Positions 5 to 14,715 of a DNA stretch of 18,312 nucleotides are shown here, in pieces. The translations under genes and the position numbers were made by a program. Each line of letters begins with the position of its first letter. Position 1 is the first letter of the stretch. Origin of the DNA: an uncultured archaeon (lineage in GTDB: Archaea; Thermoproteota; EX4484-205; JAAOZP01). The stretch lies in contig CALIBN010000014.1 in NCBI GenBank assembly GCA_938045545.1, positions 1 to 18,312 on the forward strand, read 5' to 3'. The notes beneath the pieces were generated by a model, which was not told the DNA's origin, searched no databases, and saw nothing but the letters and a program-made list of their open reading frames with translations.

Positions 5-655
5 CTAATAGTTTAAAACACGCTTGAGGAAATCGACCAGCTGTTTCTCCGACCTCATTCCAACCAGCTCATGAGAATCGTTCACGACCGTCTTCGGAAC
101 ACCCGTGACATTATATTTTTCCGCGAGCTCTGGGAACTCCATTGCTTCAATCATCTCACCTGTTATCATATCATTTTCTAATGCGAATTGGTGCGCATAG
201 AAAACCATTGTCGGGCAGTAGGGGCACGTGGGGGTTACGAAGACCTTAATGTTAAGCGGCTCCCTCACCATTTTAATGAAATCCCTCGTGGAATCCTTCA
301 GCATCGTCCTCTTATTGCTGACCATCAGAATATCCTTAACATAGGTTTCAAACTCGTATCCCGATGGTATTCCGAAAAACCTTATCCCGTAATCCTTCTC
401 GGGAGACCTTATGACGGTGGCTGGGAAAAGCCTAATACTGTACTTCTCAAGCTCCGTCAAACTGCTTTCGGAAGGATAGTGTTTCACGACGATATCCGGG
501 TTAATGCTTGAAACCTCCTGAGCTATCTGAAGAGTCTCCCTACAGTATTTACAGTCACCCTTATCCGTGAAAACCACTATGTCAACAGGATCCTTAAACT
601 CCCTGGTGAATACTCCGCGAAGCGTCTCCCTACTCTTCTCGTCTAAAAGAGCCAT
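5..655 (-). CDS. Protein disulfide oxidoreductase (PDO), two thioredoxin/glutaredoxin folds
   Basis: 216 aa with two CxxC motifs (CKYC, CPYC), plus GIRFFGIPSGYEF, VFVTPTCPYCP and the cis-Pro motif GVP typical of archaeal PDO / AhpF N-terminal-like proteins. Confidence 0.92.
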   Translation of the reverse strand: MALLDEKSRETLRGVFTREFKDPVDIVVFTDKGDCKYCRETLQIAQEVSSINPDIVVKHYPSESSLTELEKYSIRLFPATVIRSPEKDYGIRFFGIPSGYEFETYVKDILMVSNKRTMLKDSTRDFIKMVREPLNIKVFVTPTCPYCPTMVFYAHQFALENDMITGEMIEAMEFPELAEKYNVTGVPKTVVNDSHELVGMRSEKQLVDFLKRVLNY

Positions 656-6966: not shown

Positions 6967-7788
6967 TTAAAAAGGGGATATGCCCTTGGGCAGACCAGTC
7001 ATCTCATCATACTGGAAAACCGGGCCGTCTAGACACACGTGCTTCCCCCCGAAATGACAGTGTCCACACTTTCCGATTCCACATCTCATCCTGCTTTCAA
7101 GAGAGGCGTAAATATTCTCCTTGGAGAAGCCCAGTTCAACAAGCCTCCTTAGGACGAACCTTATCATAACGGGTGGGCCGCAGGTGCAGACTATCGCCGT
7201 AGCCCTGTCTAGCTCAGGCTCTCCAAGTATCGTCGTGACGACCCCGACGTTTCCCTTCCAGCCCTCCTCGCCAACGTCAACAGTCAGGTAGAGCTTCACG
7301 CCGCGCCCAGCCCACTCGGCAAGCTCATCCCTATACATTAGCAGCGAGGGTGTTCTCGCACCGTAGCAAACAGCTATCTCACCATACTTCTCTCTTTCTT
7401 CAAGCAGGTGGAGAACAAGCGATCTCAAGGGTGCAAGGCCTATTCCACCCCCCACTATGAGAATGTCTCTACCGTTCATCGTGTCAACCGGCCAACCTCG
7501 GCCGTAGGGCCCCCTCACACCGACCTCGTCTCCAACACTGGCCTCGTGAACCATCCTAGTGACACGCCCCATCCTCCTTATGCTGAACTGTAAAAAATCC
7601 TTGTCGAAGGGGGAGGAGCATATGGAAAAAGGGGCTTCGCCAACCCCGTAGACGGTGAGCATCGCGAACTGGCCTGGCGTGAAGCCTTCGAAAACGTTTG
7701 GGCTCAGCGTAAACGTCTTAGTGTCAGGAGTCTCGTCTTTAATCCCGACTATCCTAGCCGGCTTCGGAGCATACGGGTTTAACCCCAT
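6967..7788 (-). CDS. flxA: FlxA-like FAD/NAD(P)-binding [2Fe-2S] subunit (HydG/AsrB/PyrK family)
   Basis: Motifs PGQF, PFSI, RGPYGRGW, GGGIGLAP, CGPPVM and MRCGIGKCGHC...VCLDGPVF. ATG 7788 (MGLNPY) overlaps the end of the upstream gene. Confidence 0.85.
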   Translation of the reverse strand: MGLNPYAPKPARIVGIKDETPDTKTFTLSPNVFEGFTPGQFAMLTVYGVGEAPFSICSSPFDKDFLQFSIRRMGRVTRMVHEASVGDEVGVRGPYGRGWPVDTMNGRDILIVGGGIGLAPLRSLVLHLLEEREKYGEIAVCYGARTPSLLMYRDELAEWAGRGVKLYLTVDVGEEGWKGNVGVVTTILGEPELDRATAIVCTCGPPVMIRFVLRRLVELGFSKENIYASLESRMRCGIGKCGHCHFGGKHVCLDGPVFQYDEMTGLPKGISPF

Positions 7789-8804
7789 CTTTTTAAAACC
7801 TCCCTTATGTCTACGCCGGCTGGACACAGGGAGACGCATCTACCACACCCGACGCAGCCGTAGGAGTTGAAAGCCAGCGGGATCCTGCTGAGCTTATGGC
7901 AGAACCTGTGGCAGAACATTTCGACCCTGCTTGCCCTGGGGTCCAGGCCGCTCGCCATCCTCGTGAACAATGGTGAGGCACAGGTGTCCCACCCCTTCGC
8001 CCTCATGTAAATATTCTTCTCCAAATAATCCTCGGTGTCGAAACAGTAGCAGACTGGGCAGGTGAAGGAGCAGAGGCTGCACTCCACGCACCTCTGAGCC
8101 TCCTTCTGGAAGAAGCCTTCGTCGAGCGTTTCCTCAAGCCTAACCAAGCGTTCCCTCGCTATTCCAATTCTACTGTTCATCTCCCTCGTCAACCTGCTGG
8201 AGAGTTCCCCATACTCCTCCAGATGCTCAGCGCCAGCTTTTTCAAAAAGGTTTTTGAAAACGTCTACGAGAGCCTGGCCCCTACTGCTTCTAACCTCAAC
8301 CAGGAGCCCCCCGGTTATCCGGGTAAGAGTAATGTCTTCACCGGAGCCCCTGACAGGGCCTGCTTCGAAAACATTGCAGAAACACTCCTCCCCAGGCTTG
8401 GCGCAGGAGAGGCTTACGACAGTGATGCTTCTCCTCCTAGACTCGTAGAAGGGATCCGGGTTCGGAGGCTTTAGCAGAATACTGTCCAGGATGCTTAGGG
8501 CCGACGCGTCGCAAGGCCTAACGCCTAAGAGAACCATTTCGAAGCCCCCTAGGGGCTCGTGTAGAGTCCCCTTCTTGGGATCGTGCTTGAAAACCACTTC
8601 CCTCTGTGGGAGGAAGAAACGTTTAGGGGGAAGCCTCGTGTTAGAGTAGTTTAAGGAGGCTTCTCCGGCGCGCTTAATAGTTTTGAATTCGAAGCAGCCA
8701 TCCGTCTCAACGGGAGCGATAACGTTTTTACTTGAAACAAGCTGCTCTAAGAAAATTTTAAAACCGTCTTCACTCAGAAATAGCACGCGGCTCAGCCTTT
8801 CCAA
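7779..8804 (-). CDS. flxB: FlxB-like 4Fe-4S protein (HydB/AsrA family)
   Basis: Motifs PPKRFFLP, GVRPCD, C....CFC, CVECSLCSFTCPVCYC, WDTC, HRFCHK and GCVGCGRCVSLCP. Confidence 0.82.
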   Translation of the reverse strand: MERLSRVLFLSEDGFKIFLEQLVSSKNVIAPVETDGCFEFKTIKRAGEASLNYSNTRLPPKRFFLPQREVVFKHDPKKGTLHEPLGGFEMVLLGVRPCDASALSILDSILLKPPNPDPFYESRRRSITVVSLSCAKPGEECFCNVFEAGPVRGSGEDITLTRITGGLLVEVRSSRGQALVDVFKNLFEKAGAEHLEEYGELSSRLTREMNSRIGIARERLVRLEETLDEGFFQKEAQRCVECSLCSFTCPVCYCFDTEDYLEKNIYMRAKGWDTCASPLFTRMASGLDPRASRVEMFCHRFCHKLSRIPLAFNSYGCVGCGRCVSLCPAGVDIREVLKRWG

Positions 8805-9616
8805 CCCTCCTTAAAGACCAGTGGCGGAGGAGCCTCGTTGACGCTCCTTCCCGGAGCATAGCCGTAGTTCTCCTTGAACCATTCGTTAAGCTCATGGTAG
8901 AGCCTGGTCAACGGGATTTCAACCGGGCAGGCTGATTCACAGGCGCCGCACTCGACGCAGCGCCCAGCCATGTGGAGAGCCCGGGTAAGGTGGAAAGTGA
9001 AAAGCTCCTGGGGAACTCTAAGCCTATGAACCAGATCCGGCTTAAACCCTTCTATTGAGCACTCCGTGCAGTAGCAGAGGGGGCATGCTTTGACGCACGC
9101 CATGCATTTCAAACATTTCCTGAACAGGCTCAGCCAGTCTGAAGCATCCCCGTCTGCAACCGAGTTTTCACGCTGAGAAGCCTGTCCGTCTGACTTCACA
9201 ACATAGTCTGCAATCGGCGAAACCCGTGTAACACACCTCCTACAGTAGTCCGCTAAGCGTCTCTCAGCCCTGTTTAACCCGTATTTAAAAGGTTTGAAAA
9301 CACCGTTGCACTCCACAGCTATCACAACGATGCTCCCCCTGTCCAGCTGGTTCTCCTTCAAAAGCTCGACGATGGTTTTCCCGTCGCAACCCTTGGCTAC
9401 AATACCCACCCTCCTGTCCCTCAGGCTCCTCAAGTATCTCGCAAGGTTGAACCAGCAGTCAGCGTTCCACACGAGCCTATTAGCCTCCTCGGGCTTTGAG
9501 ACGAAGCACGGCCTAACGCTTCTCCCGTGATGCTCGTAGCCCACTACAAGCTCAACCTCCTTCTTCTCAAGCAGCCTTCCAGCTATGCTTCTCAACTCTT
9601 CCTCAGCCCTGCTCAA
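8792..9616 (-). CDS. flxC: FlxC-like 4Fe-4S protein
   Basis: Motifs NLARYL, KGCD, CLKCMACVKACPLCYC..C and FHLTRALHMAGRCVECGACESACP. It sits between the MvhD-like and AsrA-like genes. Confidence 0.8.
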   Translation of the reverse strand: MSRAEEELRSIAGRLLEKKEVELVVGYEHHGRSVRPCFVSKPEEANRLVWNADCWFNLARYLRSLRDRRVGIVAKGCDGKTIVELLKENQLDRGSIVVIAVECNGVFKPFKYGLNRAERRLADYCRRCVTRVSPIADYVVKSDGQASQRENSVADGDASDWLSLFRKCLKCMACVKACPLCYCTECSIEGFKPDLVHRLRVPQELFTFHLTRALHMAGRCVECGACESACPVEIPLTRLYHELNEWFKENYGYAPGRSVNEAPPPLVFKEGWKG

Positions 9617-10025
9617 CCATTCTCCCCCCTATGTTCAAGGGGCCGAGACCCTTAACCTCCTCGAGTATTCTTGAAACCTCTCTGGAGAAGAGCCCCCCCT
9701 CGTTAGACGAGATCCAAAGTATTCTCAGCCTATCCTCGTCAACCCCGATTGTCCTCAGAAGCCTCCTGAGGAGGCTTACCCTAGCCTCCGTAACCCTGCT
9801 GGGCGCAACCCTTCTAAGCTCGCTCGGCCTGCATGCCGTCACTAAGACGGCGTCAGCACCCTTCTCGAAAGCCTTAACGATGAGGCTTGGGTTTATCACC
9901 GCGGAGCAGGGCACCCTGACCGTTAAAACGTTAGGAGGGTATGTGAAGCCTTCGAAACCCGCCTGGTCGACGCCTGAGCTTGAGCACCAGCATGTGAACA
10001 CTATTACCCTAGGCTTCCAAGCCAA
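9603..10025 (-). CDS. flxD: FlxD/MvhD-like hydrogenase iron-sulfur subunit (divergent)
   Basis: Motifs IVFTCWCS, YPPNV...RVPCS, AFEKGADAVLVTAC and G...DRLRILWIS. It lies immediately downstream of hdrA. Confidence 0.82.
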   Translation of the reverse strand: MAWKPRVIVFTCWCSSSGVDQAGFEGFTYPPNVLTVRVPCSAVINPSLIVKAFEKGADAVLVTACRPSELRRVAPSRVTEARVSLLRRLLRTIGVDEDRLRILWISSNEGGLFSREVSRILEEVKGLGPLNIGGRMVEQG

Positions 10026-10028
10026 CTC

Positions 10029-13000
10029 CTAGTCCTCCAGCATCGCCGAGACCATCGGGGCAAGCTGCTCCAGACCCCAGTTTCCAAGGGTAATCGCCTC
10101 CTGCGGGCATGCTGCCAAGCACGCTCCACACCCGTTGCAAACACTCTCGAGAACCCTAACCTTGTCACCATCCCTGACTATAGCACCGTATTCGCATGAG
10201 GCTAAGCATCTTCCGCAGCCGGTGCACTTCGCCGAGACCTGAGCGTGCTCCGGGAGCCTGGGGCTACTCCCCCTGAAGAGGCTCGTAACAAGCGCGGCTG
10301 CACCGCTCCCCTCGACTGTGCTTTCAACAATATCCCTTGGGCCGTGGCACGTGCCGGCGACAAATATCCCCCTTACCCTTGTTTCAAGCGGCTTCACCTT
10401 AGGGTGAGCCTCCTCGAGGAAGCCATGCTTATCAACGGTGATGCCCAGTCTCTCAGCGAGCTCAAGCATCCTCCTAGAAGGCTTGAAGCCTACTGCTAGA
10501 ACAACCATATCAACCTCCAGCTCGCCCCTCCTACCTGTTAAAGTATCCTCGTAGACTACTAGAAGGTTCCCGTTTCCAGTCCTCCTTATCTCAGAAGGCC
10601 TTGACCTTATGAAGACAACACCATCCTCCAGGCACCTCCTGTAGAGAAGATCCTCCCAGCCTTTCCCGAATGCTCTAAGCTCGTTGTAGAATATGAAGAC
10701 ACTGGCCTCCCTGTCATGCTCACGTATGAGCCTGGCCTCCTTCATGCTTGCGGCGCAACAATAGTACGAGCACTCCTCTATCCCGGGCCCAGACTCCCTT
10801 GATCCGACGCACTGTATGAAGGCCACTCTTTTAGCGGGCTTCCCATCCCTTCTGAGAAGAACTCCTCCAGTCGGGCCTGAGGCGCATATTATTCTCTCGA
10901 ACTCCATGTTGGTAATGACGTTCTCATACTCCCCGTAGTGGTACTCTGGTTTAAGCGTAGGGTTGAAAAGGTCTGAGCCGACTGCGACGACTATGGCTCC
11001 AACGTTCAGCTCAACAGTCTTAGGCTCGTCCTCAAGGTTTATCGCAGCCCTGGTGCAAGCTTTCATGCAGAGCCCGCATTCAACGCAGTAATCCATGTTT
11101 ATCACGTATTTCAAGGGGACGGCTTGGGCGAAAGGACAGTATATCGCCTTAACAGGCTTAAGGTCAGCGTCATACTTGTTAGGCTGGTAGACGGGGCAGA
11201 CGTTCACACACTCCCCGCAGCCGTTACACTTATCCGGGTCAACGTACGTCGGGTTAACTCTGATCCTAACCTTAAAGTCCCCAACCCCACCCTTAACCTC
11301 AACAACCTCAGCGTTAGGAATAATAGTGATGTTCCTGTTTCTCCCAGCCTCTGAGAGAAGCGGCCCTTCGATACAGTTGCTAACTACGAATGCTCCCTTC
11401 GGAATGAAACAATGCGTAGGATCCACCGTTATATCGTAAACATAGTCGTCTGTCGAAGGCACTATTCGTAATTCCTTAACTTTATCTAAGAAGAATTTTG
11501 TTTTAAGAAATTCCTGGAGCTTCAAATAATCGGGATCATTAAGATCAACAATCCTTTTAACGACTTTAAGCACGCGACGTAGGTTTTTAAGAGTAATTCT
11601 ACATTCCTGACGGGTAACTCTGGCAACGTTTGAGTGAGCAAGTGGAAAGGCTCTTAGAGGAATACGATATTTTTGCCTAAGATTTGATATCAATCTTCCA
11701 CATTCCAGAGGCATTTCATCGAACAGTCCGCCACTTGGCTTTTGAAACCTAAGACTTTTAGCAATCCTTCTTAATCTCGAGGCCTTTTTAGGATGATTAG
11801 AACCTACTTTCTTAATGAACGACAATAAGTCCTCCCCGCCTGAAATGTCAACTACTACCCTATTTCCATATTCATACACCTTGCTTAAAATTCCAAGCCT
11901 TTTCAGAAGTAGATGTAATCCATATCCGTATTCATATCCGTTTCCAATCGTGAAAGTTATCTTTGCAGTCACCCAACCGGGCTTATTAGTTAACCTCGCA
12001 TACCCGTCTCCATCAAAGAAACCTTTCAAAAATGCTGCAATCAGCCTTTCATCTAGTTTGAAAATGGTTCCCAGATCCTCTTTCACTTTTAATTTTCTGG
12101 CAACCTCATTAAGGAGCCTATTTTTAATCTGAATCACCATCCTCTTCTTCCAACCTTTCTCTGACTTTAAATAAGTAAGACAAGCAGCCCTAGCTGGAAA
12201 TATTTCTTTATAGTTCTTCAGGAACAATTTTACGAGTTGCTTGTTCGTATTATAAAATCTAATTCTTTCTGTTTCTATACATCCATCCGATGCGATCAAC
12301 CCAAGCAGATACATGAATTTTTCATCAAGAAATCGTGAGTTAAGACGAATCTTCCCGCCAGCTCCCTGATATGTAAGCGTCCGGACCTTTTCTCTAACTT
12401 CAGCCCAATTAAGGCCAATCGCTTTGCAGATCCTTTTCAACTCTCCTATCGAGAGAAAGCACTCGGCTTTTTGCAAAATATCGTATCGAATATCCAGATA
12501 TGAAGAAGCGTTTCGTAGTGTGGTAAATTTCTCCTTTAACTTATTACGGATCATTCTATTAAGTTGAATATCGGCAACTTTAAAGGAATCATCAGGTAGC
12601 AGGTCAATAATCCATTCTCTTGAAGATTTTTTTACGTCAAGCTTTCTTGGCGAGTATAGCCTGTCGCCCACTTTAAGTTGCCCACATTTAATCCAAGCAG
12701 GACCTTCTGGGGAATCTACTAGTATTTTATGATCTGGTGTGAAGCACAATTTTGCTCCAGTACTGGTTTTAACCTCGACCAGTTTTCTTGGAGAAATTAG
12801 TTTTTGGGCCGAAATTATTTTACATTGTTTTAGAGAGTGAGAGTTAAAAGAATATGTTAAAAACTCATCTTTATGCGAAGTTCTCTCCACATCTGACAAC
12901 TTGTCATATAGCTCCTTTAAGGTAATAATCGTTCCATCGTGAAGAATGATTCCTGTGCTTCCAGGCATGCAGATGGAGCAGTCGAGGGTTGGGAAAGTCT

Positions 13001-13526
13001 TGTCAAGCTGAGCCATCACACCCCCTATGCTGGGCTCCTTCTCAACAATGTAGACACGGTAGCCGGCGTCAGCAATGTCTAGCGCACACCGGACCCCCGC
13101 TATTCCACCCCCTATGACGAGCGCCTCCTTAACAATCTTCAAACCATCCACGCTGAGCGGCTCATCGCGCAGAGCCTTCTGGACAGCCCCTTTCACCAGG
13201 CGGATTGCTTTCCAGGTTGCTTCCTCCCTGTTTCCGCATGCCCAGGCGCACTGCTCCCTTATGTTTACAAACTCGGCGAGACCCTTGAAGCTCCAGGAGC
13301 TGTTGAAAACAGCTTCAAGAAGCCTGCTTGAACATGCTGCGACAACAATCCTGCATTCACCCTTTATGCCAAGTTTTTCAAAAGCGTTCTTCTCGCAGAG
13401 CCTGTCGGAGACGAGAACCCTCTCCACCAGAGGGTTTCCTGAAAAAACGCTTCTAAGCCTTTCGAAATCCATTTCCCCAAGCAGGGTCGAGTTGCAGGTG
13501 CATAGCAAGATTGTCACACGCCTCAA
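10029..13526 (-). CDS. hdrA: Heterodisulfide reductase subunit A, intein-containing precursor (1165 aa; about 633 aa mature)
   Basis: N-terminal CTC/VVAACS/NIREQC, FAD motif GGGIAG, MAQLDKTFPTLDCSI|CI, inserted ferredoxin domain, ITNMEFER, QCVGSR..CSYYCC...K and a C-terminal 2x[4Fe-4S] domain. Confidence 0.95.
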   Translation of the reverse strand: MRRVTILLCTCNSTLLGEMDFERLRSVFSGNPLVERVLVSDRLCEKNAFEKLGIKGECRIVVAACSSRLLEAVFNSSWSFKGLAEFVNIREQCAWACGNREEATWKAIRLVKGAVQKALRDEPLSVDGLKIVKEALVIGGGIAGVRCALDIADAGYRVYIVEKEPSIGGVMAQLDKTFPTLDCSICMPGSTGIILHDGTIITLKELYDKLSDVERTSHKDEFLTYSFNSHSLKQCKIISAQKLISPRKLVEVKTSTGAKLCFTPDHKILVDSPEGPAWIKCGQLKVGDRLYSPRKLDVKKSSREWIIDLLPDDSFKVADIQLNRMIRNKLKEKFTTLRNASSYLDIRYDILQKAECFLSIGELKRICKAIGLNWAEVREKVRTLTYQGAGGKIRLNSRFLDEKFMYLLGLIASDGCIETERIRFYNTNKQLVKLFLKNYKEIFPARAACLTYLKSEKGWKKRMVIQIKNRLLNEVARKLKVKEDLGTIFKLDERLIAAFLKGFFDGDGYARLTNKPGWVTAKITFTIGNGYEYGYGLHLLLKRLGILSKVYEYGNRVVVDISGGEDLLSFIKKVGSNHPKKASRLRRIAKSLRFQKPSGGLFDEMPLECGRLISNLRQKYRIPLRAFPLAHSNVARVTRQECRITLKNLRRVLKVVKRIVDLNDPDYLKLQEFLKTKFFLDKVKELRIVPSTDDYVYDITVDPTHCFIPKGAFVVSNCIEGPLLSEAGRNRNITIIPNAEVVEVKGGVGDFKVRIRVNPTYVDPDKCNGCGECVNVCPVYQPNKYDADLKPVKAIYCPFAQAVPLKYVINMDYCVECGLCMKACTRAAINLEDEPKTVELNVGAIVVAVGSDLFNPTLKPEYHYGEYENVITNMEFERIICASGPTGGVLLRRDGKPAKRVAFIQCVGSRESGPGIEECSYYCCAASMKEARLIREHDREASVFIFYNELRAFGKGWEDLLYRRCLEDGVVFIRSRPSEIRRTGNGNLLVVYEDTLTGRRGELEVDMVVLAVGFKPSRRMLELAERLGITVDKHGFLEEAHPKVKPLETRVRGIFVAGTCHGPRDIVESTVEGSGAAALVTSLFRGSSPRLPEHAQVSAKCTGCGRCLASCEYGAIVRDGDKVRVLESVCNGCGACLAACPQEAITLGNWGLEQLAPMVSAMLED
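11376..12971 (-). mobile_element. Intein with LAGLIDADG homing endonuclease in hdrA (residues 186-717, 532 aa)
   Basis: Starts CMPGST. Block B is FTPDHKIL, the endonuclease motifs are LLGLIASDG and FLKGFFDGDG, and blocks F/G read YVYDITV...FVVSN followed by Cys+1. Removing it restores FPTLDCSICIEGP. The DNA is visibly AT-richer than its flanks. Confidence 0.95.
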
Positions 13527-14272
13527 CGCTTAACCACTCTCCTAAGCAGAGCCTCCGGGAAACCTATTTGAAGCGGGTCTGAGCCCAGTGAGAAAGCTGA
13601 AAGCTGGCCGAGGTGGAGTACAGGGATTCGGCTGACTGGGCTTAGTCGAAGCATGCAGTGCGAGCACGTTGCAACAATACAGTCTGCCCCAGCCTTCTCA
13701 GCCGAGCCTGCCTTCAACCTAGCCATCTCTCCACCGACATTCTCGTCTGAAACAAACCCGCCGCAACAGTTAAGCTCACCCTCGTAGGATACGGGGAGGA
13801 AACCCAGCGCCTCGAGAACACTCTTAACCGTCTTAGGGTCCTCAGGATTATCCAAGCCCCTGCCAGCCGGCCTTAGAAAACGGCAGCTGTGTTGAACCGC
13901 GCATCGTAAACCTTTGAAGCCGAGCCGCGGCTTAACCTCCCTCAGCCTCTCCAGCAGCAAAGTCTGGAAAGGCTTCAGCCCAGGAGGCTTAACACCCTTA
14001 CTCTCGGCGATAATCCTGAAAGCGTCGCTAAGGCTTGCGAAACAGTCGTCGCACGCGGTTACCACAGTGCTGTTTAGAAGCCTCATGTTCCTCTCGTTAA
14101 GCCTGAGCCAAGCCTCCCTGCTCAGGGAGAAGAACCAGGAGGGGGCGCAGCATGACGCCTCAGGCTGCTCGCTGAACGAGACCCCTATCCTGCTCAGGGT
14201 CTCTTTAACAGCCTTCTCAACCTCAGGTTGAACAGTCCTTATAACGCAGCCCAGGTAAAGGGTTAGACTCAT
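13523..14272 (-). CDS. hdrB: Heterodisulfide reductase subunit B (two CCG domains, compact)
   Basis: YLGC..SCCAP..TACDDC and HSC..NCCGG..TCSHC provide both five-Cys sets. It lies between hdrC and hdrA with 4-bp overlaps. Confidence 0.88.
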   Translation of the reverse strand: MSLTLYLGCVIRTVQPEVEKAVKETLSRIGVSFSEQPEASCCAPSWFFSLSREAWLRLNERNMRLLNSTVVTACDDCFASLSDAFRIIAESKGVKPPGLKPFQTLLLERLREVKPRLGFKGLRCAVQHSCRFLRPAGRGLDNPEDPKTVKSVLEALGFLPVSYEGELNCCGGFVSDENVGGEMARLKAGSAEKAGADCIVATCSHCMLRLSPVSRIPVLHLGQLSAFSLGSDPLQIGFPEALLRRVVKR

Positions 14273-14715
14273 TTAAAGCCGGCCTCCCTCAGGATCCTCC
14301 GGACCTCGCTTAAACCCTGCTCGCTCAGCCCCGCCTCAGGCAGACAAAGTAGACGCCTTTTTTCACGAGACTCAGGCGTAAGCGGGAAGGCTAAACCCGT
14401 TTCCCTCACCTGCTCAACCATTTTAAGGATGCTTAAAGGAGCCTCACCCCCGTTCTCATAGAGGACTGACCTAAGAACCATTATTATGCTGAAAGGGTTA
14501 ACCGCCTGGGGGCATCTTTCAGAGCAGAGGGAGCATGTTGAGCAGAGCCACGGGTCCTGGTCTGGAAGCCTGTTGAACCTCGCTATCGAGCCGACAATCC
14601 TACGCGGGTTAAAGTCTTCACGGATTAGGGTAACTGGGCAGGCGGAGGTGCATGAGCCGCACTGCACGCATTTAAGAGGATTCCCCGCCCCCTTCTTCCT
14701 TAAGGTTTCGATCAA
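14269..14715 (-). CDS. hdrC: Heterodisulfide reductase subunit C
   Basis: Motifs CVQCGSCTSACP, FNPRRI and WLCSTCSLCSERCPQ. A GGAGG Shine-Dalgarno precedes the TTG start. Confidence 0.9.
   Translation of the reverse strand: MIETLRKKGAGNPLKCVQCGSCTSACPVTLIREDFNPRRIVGSIARFNRLPDQDPWLCSTCSLCSERCPQAVNPFSIIMVLRSVLYENGGEAPLSILKMVEQVRETGLAFPLTPESREKRRLLCLPEAGLSEQGLSEVRRILREAGFK

Follow-up and report, generated by a model that had tools for sequence, protein, structure and literature searches.

The stretch of archaeal DNA analysed here (the window, meaning the whole 18,312 nucleotides of contig CALIBN010000014.1, from an uncultured member of the Thermoproteota) carries a gene for a homologue of HdrA, the A subunit of heterodisulfide reductase, that is interrupted in frame by an intein. 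In the translation of 10029-13526 on the minus strand, the N-extein ends with KTFPTLDCSI, the intein runs from CMPGSTGII to PKGAFVVSN and the C-extein begins with CIEGPLLS; the predicted spliced junction peptide is TFPTLDCSICIEGPLLSEAGR. A first-pass annotation, made from the letters of the DNA, had placed an intein at 11373..12980. The limits of that span are the last base of the codon for Cys+1 and the first base of that for Cys-3; the intein itself, 532 residues long, occupies 11376-12971. The presence of the element was borne out by Pfam matches above the cut-offs and by orthologues in which the site is empty. Coordinates are collected in Table 1. The window's own genome is referred to as G000, and all features of the window listed there lie on its minus strand.

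Table 1. Features of the interrupted hdrA-like gene, its neighbours and further inteins of the same genome; a slash marks an insertion point
Feature	Position	Strand	Basis
HdrA-homologue precursor frame (N-extein, intein, C-extein)	10029..13526	-	open frame, 1165 codons and stop
Intein, 532 aa, class 1, with LAGLIDADG homing-endonuclease domain	11376..12971	-	translation, Pfam, AlphaFold2 model, Foldseek
N-extein, 185 aa: Cys-rich N-terminal domain and start of FAD-binding domain, ends FPTLDCSI	12972..13526	-	aligns to solved HdrA residues 3-196
Cys-3 codon (extein Cys183)	12978..12980	-	aligned with Cys194 of 5odc_A and 9sfi_A
Cys1 codon, first splicing nucleophile	12969..12971	-	invariant in 27/27 aligned inteins
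Block B TPDH (TxxH)	12729..12740	-	T and H kept in 20/20 HdrA inteins
LAGLIDADG motif 1, YLLGLIASDG, catalytic Asp present	12282..12311	-	alignment, translation
LAGLIDADG motif 2, FLKGFFDGDG, catalytic Asp present	12003..12032	-	alignment, translation
Blocks F and G (YVYDITVDPTHCFIPKGAFVVSN), ending Asn532; penultimate residue Ser, not His	11376..11444	-	alignment, translation
Codon TGT of Cys+1, second nucleophile of splicing, counterpart of residue 197 in solved HdrA	11373..11375	-	alignments
C-extein, 448 aa and stop: remaining FAD domain, inserted and C-terminal ferredoxin domains	10029..11375	-	structure alignments; NCBIfam HdrA2 482 bits, partial query
hdrC-like gene, 148 aa, 4Fe-4S dicluster	14269..14715	-	Pfam Fer4_8/Fer4_9; NCBIfam CoB_CoM_SS_C 75.9 bits, below cut-off 160
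hdrB-like gene, 249 aa, CCG domains	13523..14272	-	Pfam CCG 82.6 bits, two stretches
mvhD/FlpD-like gene	9603..10025	-	Pfam FlpD 110.6 bits
Fer4 protein gene	8792-9616	-	Pfam/NCBIfam
Sulfhydrogenase-beta/AsrA-like gene	7779-8804	-	NCBIfam, below equivalog cut-off
Sulfhydrogenase-gamma/AsrB-like FAD/NAD(P)-binding gene	6967-7839	-	NCBIfam, below equivalog cut-off
Protein disulfide oxidoreductase, two thioredoxin folds, CKYC and CPYC	5..655	-	TIGR02187 248.6 bits, cut-off 185; 10 kb off, outside operon
Radical-SAM enzymes L001 and L002, each with an intein before third Cys of CxxxCxxC (CNFSCWY/C; CNFSCPW/C)	G000 C17:54926-57334; C6:116731-118242	+; -	PF14890

Pfam recognised Intein_splicing (PF14890, 50.4 bits for a cut-off of 35.8) over precursor residues 193-713 and, inside this span, LAGLIDADG_3 (PF14528, 60 bits for a cut-off of 22.5), with the Pyr_redox_2/FAD and 4Fe-4S domains lying outside the intein. 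The GC content of the intein was 0.385 compared with 0.54 in both exteins, a drop that shows in a 1-kb profile, and at third codon positions it was 0.35 compared with 0.63. An insertion sequence or other foreign insertion was considered for this low-GC stretch and rejected, as the stretch is in frame and wholly intein. An AlphaFold2 model of the intein, built from a 27-row intein alignment in which T78, H81, S531 and N532 are invariant, reached a mean predicted local distance difference test score of 92.3 and a predicted template-modelling score of 0.92. Its best Foldseek matches in the PDB were 2cw7 (PI-PkoII, E 8.8e-20), 7qss (TliVMA) and 1dq3 (PI-PfuI), followed by PI-SceI. In a separate alignment of 20 HdrA inteins, from which the twenty-first, P0015, was left out because its start is miscalled, Cys1, TxxH, the block F motif VYDxTV..H, VVSN and Cys+1 were invariant throughout. 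Both LAGLIDADG aspartates are intact in 13 of these, the window's included, and at least one is replaced in the other seven (P0008, P0009, P0013, P0017, P0020, P0022 and P0025), two of which are also shortened to 456-458 residues. Judged by the alignment, this loss and shortening is the familiar decay of the endonuclease with splicing kept. We attribute the window element to an intact class-1 intein, with splicing and endonuclease functions that are predicted from its sequence and modelled fold.

The insertion point was located by comparison with solved HdrA structures. The match of the precursor to 5odc_A (E 2.3e-152) was broken into two parts, one ending and the other beginning at the junctions, query 57-187 on residues 63-198 and query 718-1164 on residues 197-651. 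With 8rvu_a the match had an E of 1.8e-150, and the HdrA alignments run from residue 3-4 to the C-terminus; the alignment of the N-extein alone also begins at residue 3-4 and takes in the N-terminal CxC region. In 5odc_A, Cys+1 aligned with Cys197 and Cys-3 with Cys194. The alignment of the N-extein to 9sfi_A stops at DCA195 and that of the C-extein restarts at residue 200 opposite query 721, which places Cys+1 again at residue 197. The claims of the first-pass annotation that the intein splits the conserved DCxxC motif of HdrA, that the precursor has Cys-3-x-x-Cys1 (C183 and C186) and that the second cysteine of the motif is the +1 nucleophile were thus upheld by the translated junctions, by nine congeners that are uninterrupted at the site and by the structure alignments.

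This motif is central to the function of HdrA. In the part of PMC9012536 that treats the M. wolfeii enzyme at this residue, Cys197 of one HdrA ligates the N-terminal iron-sulfur (Fe-S) cluster of the partner HdrA, a cluster that is on the route to ferredoxin. The corresponding part of PMC13518236, of which 9sfi is presumably the structure entry, gives residue 197 of M. maripaludis HdrA as selenocysteine and proposes a redox-active selenylsulfide relay with a cysteine that it does not number. The intein splits a motif that is conserved as well as central to the mechanism, and Cys+1, a nucleophile in splicing, is the same residue on which the low-potential branch depends. Before splicing the protein would be inactive, and Cys+1 would be available for cluster ligation or redox pairing only after splicing.

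The gene belongs to an operon with the order hdrC-hdrB-hdrA-mvhD, followed by the Fer4 and AsrA/AsrB-like genes. The TGA stop of hdrB overlaps the TTG start of hdrA (TTGA), which suggests translational coupling and the longer hdrA start. The database gene call P0002 (1147 aa) starts 18 residues downstream of this TTG at 13526 and loses 13473-13526, and with it a CTC motif whose counterpart in solved HdrAs is their N-terminal Cys region, as the alignments show. Against NCBIfam HdrA2 the C-extein, being a partial query, scored 482 bits for a cut-off of 1100. Since HdrB and HdrC scored below the CoB-CoM equivalog cut-offs and no mcrA was found in the host genome, which is 92% complete, the host protein is called an HdrA homologue only. 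The three genes at 6967-9616, whose NCBIfam matches were all below the equivalog cut-offs, likely supply the Hdr-like complex with its NAD(P)H module. The AsrA/AsrB-like subunits and the lack of an mcrA match suggest that the organism is a non-methanogen with a bifurcating complex of the Hdr type linked to NAD(P)H; going by these gene contents, the host protein is probably the HdrA homologue of such a complex, and its disulfide substrate may differ from CoB-CoM. The genome holds a second HdrA paralogue at C17:68187-70622 (+) (L052), an HdrA-MvhD fusion in an 812-aa frame and 43% identical, in which DCTAC is uninterrupted; it is likewise intein-free in the three other genomes of the genus in which its locus was read (L039-L041). 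Across the window Rfam gave 0 matches at gathering thresholds. Three antisense open frames on the plus strand (11815-12132, 13075-13533 and 10245-10499) matched 0 Pfam families and were set aside as chance frames.

The HdrA intein was also found outside this genome. When the intein region served as query in a word-indexed search, 71 proteins out of 7998 scored candidates matched at E<=0.001, and P0003-P0022 and P0025 were HdrA-like proteins with an intein at the same junction, at 38-77% identity. Both junctions could be resolved in 81 of 101 proteins examined, including 20 HdrA inteins. The source labels of the HdrA-intein proteins include Thermoproteota, Caldarchaeum, Bathyarchaeia and Hermodarchaeota, and three of the proteins (P0013, P0017 and P0021) are HdrA-MvhD fusions. 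All 21 HdrA inteins formed one clade in a FastTree of 82 inteins, which was midpoint rooted and read without support values. With HMMER, run exhaustively on representatives at 50% identity, there were 695 matches at E<=0.001, 35 of them at E<=1e-30, and only two HdrA representatives stood at the top of the list. In a phylum sample of 401 genomes, 15 had any match at E<=1e-20, and in six of these (G000, G006, G047, G063, G058 and G236) the match lay in HdrA. A scan of one genome per species with two short peptide patterns, which can detect close relatives only, found five full-length HdrA-intein loci (L056-L060). Their identities equal those of five HdrA-intein genomes of the phylum sample, and they are probably the same species.

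Two of the loci, L013 of G058 and L014 of G236, have as host an HdrA-like protein that is missing the N-terminal Fe-S domain; it starts MADAVLVIGGG and is encoded directly downstream of 2-oxoacid:ferredoxin oxidoreductase-like genes. The database gene call P0015 starts wrongly at MDCSI. That P0015, G058 and G236 represent frameshifted genes or genes with a broken N-extein was considered and dismissed, since this protein has no N-terminal domain at all and begins 55 residues ahead of the intein.

The first-pass annotation had doubted that HdrA is a common intein host. In so far as full-text searches combining intein with HdrA, heterodisulfide reductase or heterodisulphide found no account of an HdrA intein, this stood; it has to be qualified by the presence of the allele in P0003-P0022 and P0025 and by one JGI protein that a machine had already named 'heterodisulfide reductase subunit A-like polyferredoxin/intein/homing endonuclease'. 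Its statement that intein hosts are mostly proteins of replication, repair and nucleotide metabolism agrees with the survey by Novikova et al. (2015), in which replication and repair account for 66.9% and nucleotide metabolism for 8.3% of archaeal hosts. That survey includes a radical-SAM 'MoaA' host, and in its supplement file 2, the one file searched, no host is an Hdr protein, a polyferredoxin or a hydrogenase. A 2025 survey covered 1,152 HdrA sequences, the longest of 1,182 aa, and its main text nowhere contains the word intein. The residue-197 site of HdrA is apparently an undescribed host and site for inteins, of which machine annotation had caught a glimpse.

The distribution within the genus points to mobility. 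Among 17 genomes including the window's own, the orthologue site was readable in 13, three had the paralogue only and one had no match. The intein is present in four of the 13 (G000, G006, G063 and G047) and the site is empty in nine (G079, G135, G031, G157, G119, G071, G150, G127 and G023), all of which read FPTLDCSIC[IV][EQ]GP without interruption, the spliced or uninterrupted form being FPTLDCSICIEGP. Presence of the intein does not track similarity of the exteins, as C-extein identities to G000 of 93.3%, 93.1% and 92.9% belong to an empty, an intein-bearing and another empty allele, respectively. Intein and extein divergences, as estimated from the aligned sequences, are likewise incongruent across pairs. 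G006 and G063 have C-exteins with 98.9% amino-acid identity and a synonymous divergence (dS) of 0.154, and their inteins share 75.0% identity with a dS of 0.829; for G063 and G047 the C-exteins are at 84.0% with a dS of 1.67 and the inteins at 86.8% with a dS of 0.343. The ratio of nonsynonymous to synonymous divergence (dN/dS) was 0.13-0.19 for the intein, which indicates purifying selection, and 0.04-0.07 for the exteins of intein-bearing alleles. The Cys+1 codon is TGT in 6/6 intein-bearing hdrA alleles and TGC in 9/9 empty ones (loci L009-L014, L027-L037 and L042). In these related and not independent genomes, the split looks like co-conversion of flanks during homing or a target-site polymorphism linked to homing. 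As read from these comparisons, the data fit an active homing element that cycles through gain, endonuclease decay and loss, and a selfish homing element fully explains the mobility signals. The G000 genome is unusually rich in homing elements. It has 16 LAGLIDADG_3 matches, many of them in free-standing frames of about 300 aa (for example C42:45936-46523, C18:38517-39071 and C11:32759-32998), and further long LAGLIDADG frames without a PF14890 flag (C17, 1580 aa; C12, 815 aa).

The same data bear on the idea that the intein is decayed and no longer splices, in which case this hdrA copy would be inactivated and the second paralogue would do the work. The penultimate serine in place of histidine and the intein-free HdrA-MvhD fusion on C17 would be in keeping with such a loss. 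However, the frame is open across all 1165 codons, the splicing residues are invariant in 20 homologues as distant as 38-77% identity, and the dN/dS values are low for the intein and for the exteins that carry it. The VSN/C junction is moreover normal for the whole clade, including the essential hosts Cbf5 and A/V-ATPase B, and inteins without a penultimate histidine are able to splice. We rejected a pseudogene or decayed intein on these grounds and hold it to be extremely improbable.

The remaining question concerns the spacing of the cysteines at the N-terminal junction. Six inteins were found in G000 with PF14890, and three of them have the Cys-3/Cys1 pair, namely that of HdrA and those of two radical-SAM enzymes, one of which (C17:54926-57334) also has an HMPTM zinc-ribbon domain. 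The others, in RtcB, a T2SSE ATPase and a protein named SMC by sequence motif alone, lack Cys-3. When the insertion sites of the nearest related inteins were grouped by eye into about 17, Cys-3 was present in HdrA (20/20), at YSCTL/CQSFAP of AcsB (4/4), at RICGI/C of NiFe-hydrogenase-like large subunits (3/3), in a NuoB-like subunit (1/3) and in one helicase. It was missing at 12 of the about 17 sites, including OFOR beta, Cbf5, A/V-ATPase A and B, AcsB site b, AOR and an MCM-like protein. In the 82-intein tree the Cys-3 sites of HdrA, AcsB-a, the NiFe-LSU-like and NuoB-like subunits and the helicase lie in separate site-specific clades, and on this topology they would have arisen independently. 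A single lineage hopping among look-alike C-x-[IL]/C targets was not supported for the same reason, with the tree again taken without supports.

Nearest relatives of the HdrA intein are found at cysteines of anaerobic metalloenzymes (P0073, P0079, P0082; P0023, P0053, P0087, P0089; P0048-P0061; P0075). The sites are RxCGxC of NiFe-hydrogenase/NuoD-like large subunits (RICGI/C), YSCTL/CQSFAP and TS/CGCFEC of the CODH/ACS beta subunit and DCGS/CNGC of a NuoB-like small subunit. We take the cysteines at the AcsB, hydrogenase-like and NuoB-like sites to be known metal ligands.

An adaptive role in redox gating would give the spacing a function. A Cys-3/Cys1 disulfide would block the N-S acyl shift and hold a clusterless, inactive HdrA precursor until conditions are reducing, with thioredoxin or the protein disulfide oxidoreductase as possible reductant, and selection would have kept the arrangement. 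The precursor does have the Cys-3-x-x-Cys1 geometry, and the precedent invoked by the first-pass annotation is sound, as reviews of conditional splicing report that in P. abyssi the MoaA intein is kept from splicing by a native disulfide between Cys-3 and Cys1 (PMC10663303, PMC3922620). The split motif is moreover the one proposed as a redox-active Cys/Sec pair in M. maripaludis, at least in the part of PMC13518236 that deals with it, so the N-extein may favour formation of the bond. The two radical-SAM inteins in CxxxCxxC motifs of the same genome, and the related inteins that sit before the second cysteine of a CxxC in AcsB and the hydrogenase-like subunits and do not form one lineage, would also suit such a role. 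Finally, the earlier identification of the frame at the window's edge as a protein disulfide oxidoreductase was confirmed by TIGR02187. Such enzymes are associated with a disulfide-rich cytoplasm in thermophilic archaea.

The case for gating nevertheless proceeds by analogy, and the sequence itself does not demonstrate gated splicing. The spacing arises automatically because an intein with Cys1 was inserted before the second cysteine of a CxxC motif, and since Cys-3 is equally conserved in the empty, intein-free HdrA alleles its conservation is no evidence of selection on the precursor. If inteins with Cys+1 tend to lodge at conserved cysteines that bind metal, where CxxC motifs abound, Cys-3 should be enriched in any case; this needs no selected trap, though it would also be compatible with one. 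The majority of related sites, as counted above, do without it. The host evidently thrives without the intein in 9/13 congeners, and the oxidoreductase gene is unlinked to the operon. An evolved redox-regulatory role, argued from precedent, is in our view unlikely.

Other cysteine chemistry could also make splicing conditional and tie it to the supply of metal or Fe-S clusters, through a Cys1-Cys+1 disulfide or through binding of zinc, iron or a nascent Fe-S cluster by Cys-3, Cys1 and Cys+1. Three cysteines meet at the active site of the precursor, and inhibition of splicing by zinc or Fe-S is part of the general intein literature. In the structure papers' sections on this residue, Cys+1 serves mature HdrA either as cluster ligand or as redox partner, and, for the intein in Pab PolII, a review's summary gives a Cys1-Cys+1 disulfide stopping splicing. 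This proposal is purely inferential, and we rate it as highly unlikely. A broader reading takes in HdrA DCSI/C, acetyl-CoA synthase YSCTL/C, NiFe-hydrogenase-like RICGI/C, NuoB-like DCGS/C and radical-SAM CNFSCWY/C. It supposes that Cys1/Cys+1 inteins have lodged independently before the second or last cysteine of a metal-binding or redox-active CxxC in O2-sensitive metalloenzymes, and that in this recurrent architecture of anaerobic archaea the Cys-3/Cys1 pair is a redox or metal-supply checkpoint that delays cofactor insertion until the cell is reducing, the inteins having become domesticated maturation switches and being more than selfish elements. We consider this quite unlikely.

We therefore favour, with a probability of about 80%, a functional and horizontally mobile class-1 intein inserted directly before the residue-197 cysteine of an hdrA-like gene, with the Cys-3 spacing as a by-product of the insertion point. 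Some points weigh against this assignment. Splicing and endonuclease activity are predicted only, for all HdrA inteins. The penultimate Ser531 stands where histidine is usual, though it is common to the whole intein clade, whose members end in VSN or KN. The rooting of the tree at its midpoint and the reading without supports limit what the clades can carry, and the recurrence of Cys-3 at several independent metal-site insertions could mean that the spacing is more than a by-product. The host genome is in 51 contigs at its 92% completeness and an assembly error is conceivable, but the same intein architecture occurs in four independent genomes, which argues against it.

For such an intein, translation of the operon would yield a 1165-aa precursor in which Cys1 performs an N-S acyl shift, Cys+1 takes over the N-extein by transesterification, Asn532 cyclises and a final S-N shift leaves the native DCSI-CIEGP peptide. 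Cys+1 would then, and not before, be freed for its place between the FAD and the N-terminal cluster, whether as Fe-S ligand or as redox partner, so cofactor insertion and dimer assembly would have to come after splicing. Once released, the intein would cleave hdrA alleles that lack it and propagate through gene conversion. Under oxidising conditions a Cys-3/Cys1 disulfide could reversibly stall the N-S acyl shift at Cys1. Whether this bond would form in vitro under such conditions is to us an even bet, and we regard it as a chemical side-effect and not as a demonstrated regulatory adaptation.

In anaerobic energy metabolism HdrA forms the core of flavin-based electron bifurcation, and an intein on residue 197 would make its maturation strictly dependent on protein splicing. 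The finding adds a flavo-Fe-S enzyme of energy metabolism to a list of intein hosts dominated by replication and repair proteins. Together with the two radical-SAM inteins of the genome and the AcsB and hydrogenase-like CxxC inteins, it offers a natural panel on which to ask whether such elements are regulators or parasites. HdrA surveys and gene callers are prone to misjudge genes of this kind, which appear as length outliers or with truncated starts. The HdrA intein is also a candidate tool for protein splicing, thermostable and possibly switchable by redox. The hypothesis of redox gating is modelled on an existing precedent, and nothing here departs from known intein biology.

The closest known system is the P. 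abyssi MoaA intein, whose control by a native Cys-3/Cys1 disulfide was reported by Callahan et al. (2011) and is taken here as summarised in the reviews PMC10663303 and PMC3922620, the same reviews outlining an engineered Cys-3 trap in the Ssp DnaE intein. Both the MoaA and HdrA elements are Cys1/Cys+1 class-1 inteins inserted before the last cysteine of an Fe-S CxxC in an O2-sensitive enzyme, with Cys-3 and Cys1 in CxxC spacing. The HdrA intein differs in sitting at residue 197 and not at a radical-SAM cluster and in being a 532-aa element with a homing endonuclease, and gating is proposed for it by analogy. Other archaeal inteins, as reviewed in outline, use a Cys1-Cys+1 disulfide (Pab PolII) or an internal disulfide (Mma PolII). 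In the HdrA intein, as in these two and in the M. smegmatis DnaB intein 1, the catalytic cysteines may be reversibly oxidisable in a way that stalls splicing; however, the disulfide partners and hosts are different, none of the latter being a flavo-Fe-S enzyme of energy metabolism. The DnaB intein 1 reportedly responds to oxidative stress.

In architecture the HdrA intein resembles PI-PkoII (2cw7), TliVMA and PhoVMA (7qss, 7qst), PI-PfuI (1dq3) and PI-SceI (1vde), each with a HINT domain and a two-motif LAGLIDADG domain (Foldseek E 8.8e-20 to 3e-10). Unlike them it has a penultimate serine; identity to these solved inteins is 13-18%, and their hosts are DNA polymerase, ribonucleotide reductase and V-ATPase A. 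The host shares its numbering with the methanogen proteins, its Cys+1 and Cys-3 corresponding to positions 197 (Cys in M. wolfeii, Sec in M. maripaludis) and 194 (5odc_A, 9sfi_A). Those HdrAs are intein-free; the organism of the window yielded no mcrA in its 92%-complete genome and has HdrB and HdrC below the CoB-CoM cut-offs. Finally, the M. tuberculosis SufB intein, in the account of it in PMC8891592, likewise resides in a protein of Fe-S metabolism. In contrast to HdrA, SufB is a bacterial Fe-S assembly scaffold and not an Fe-S enzyme, and its intein is inserted at a position other than a CxxC ligand.

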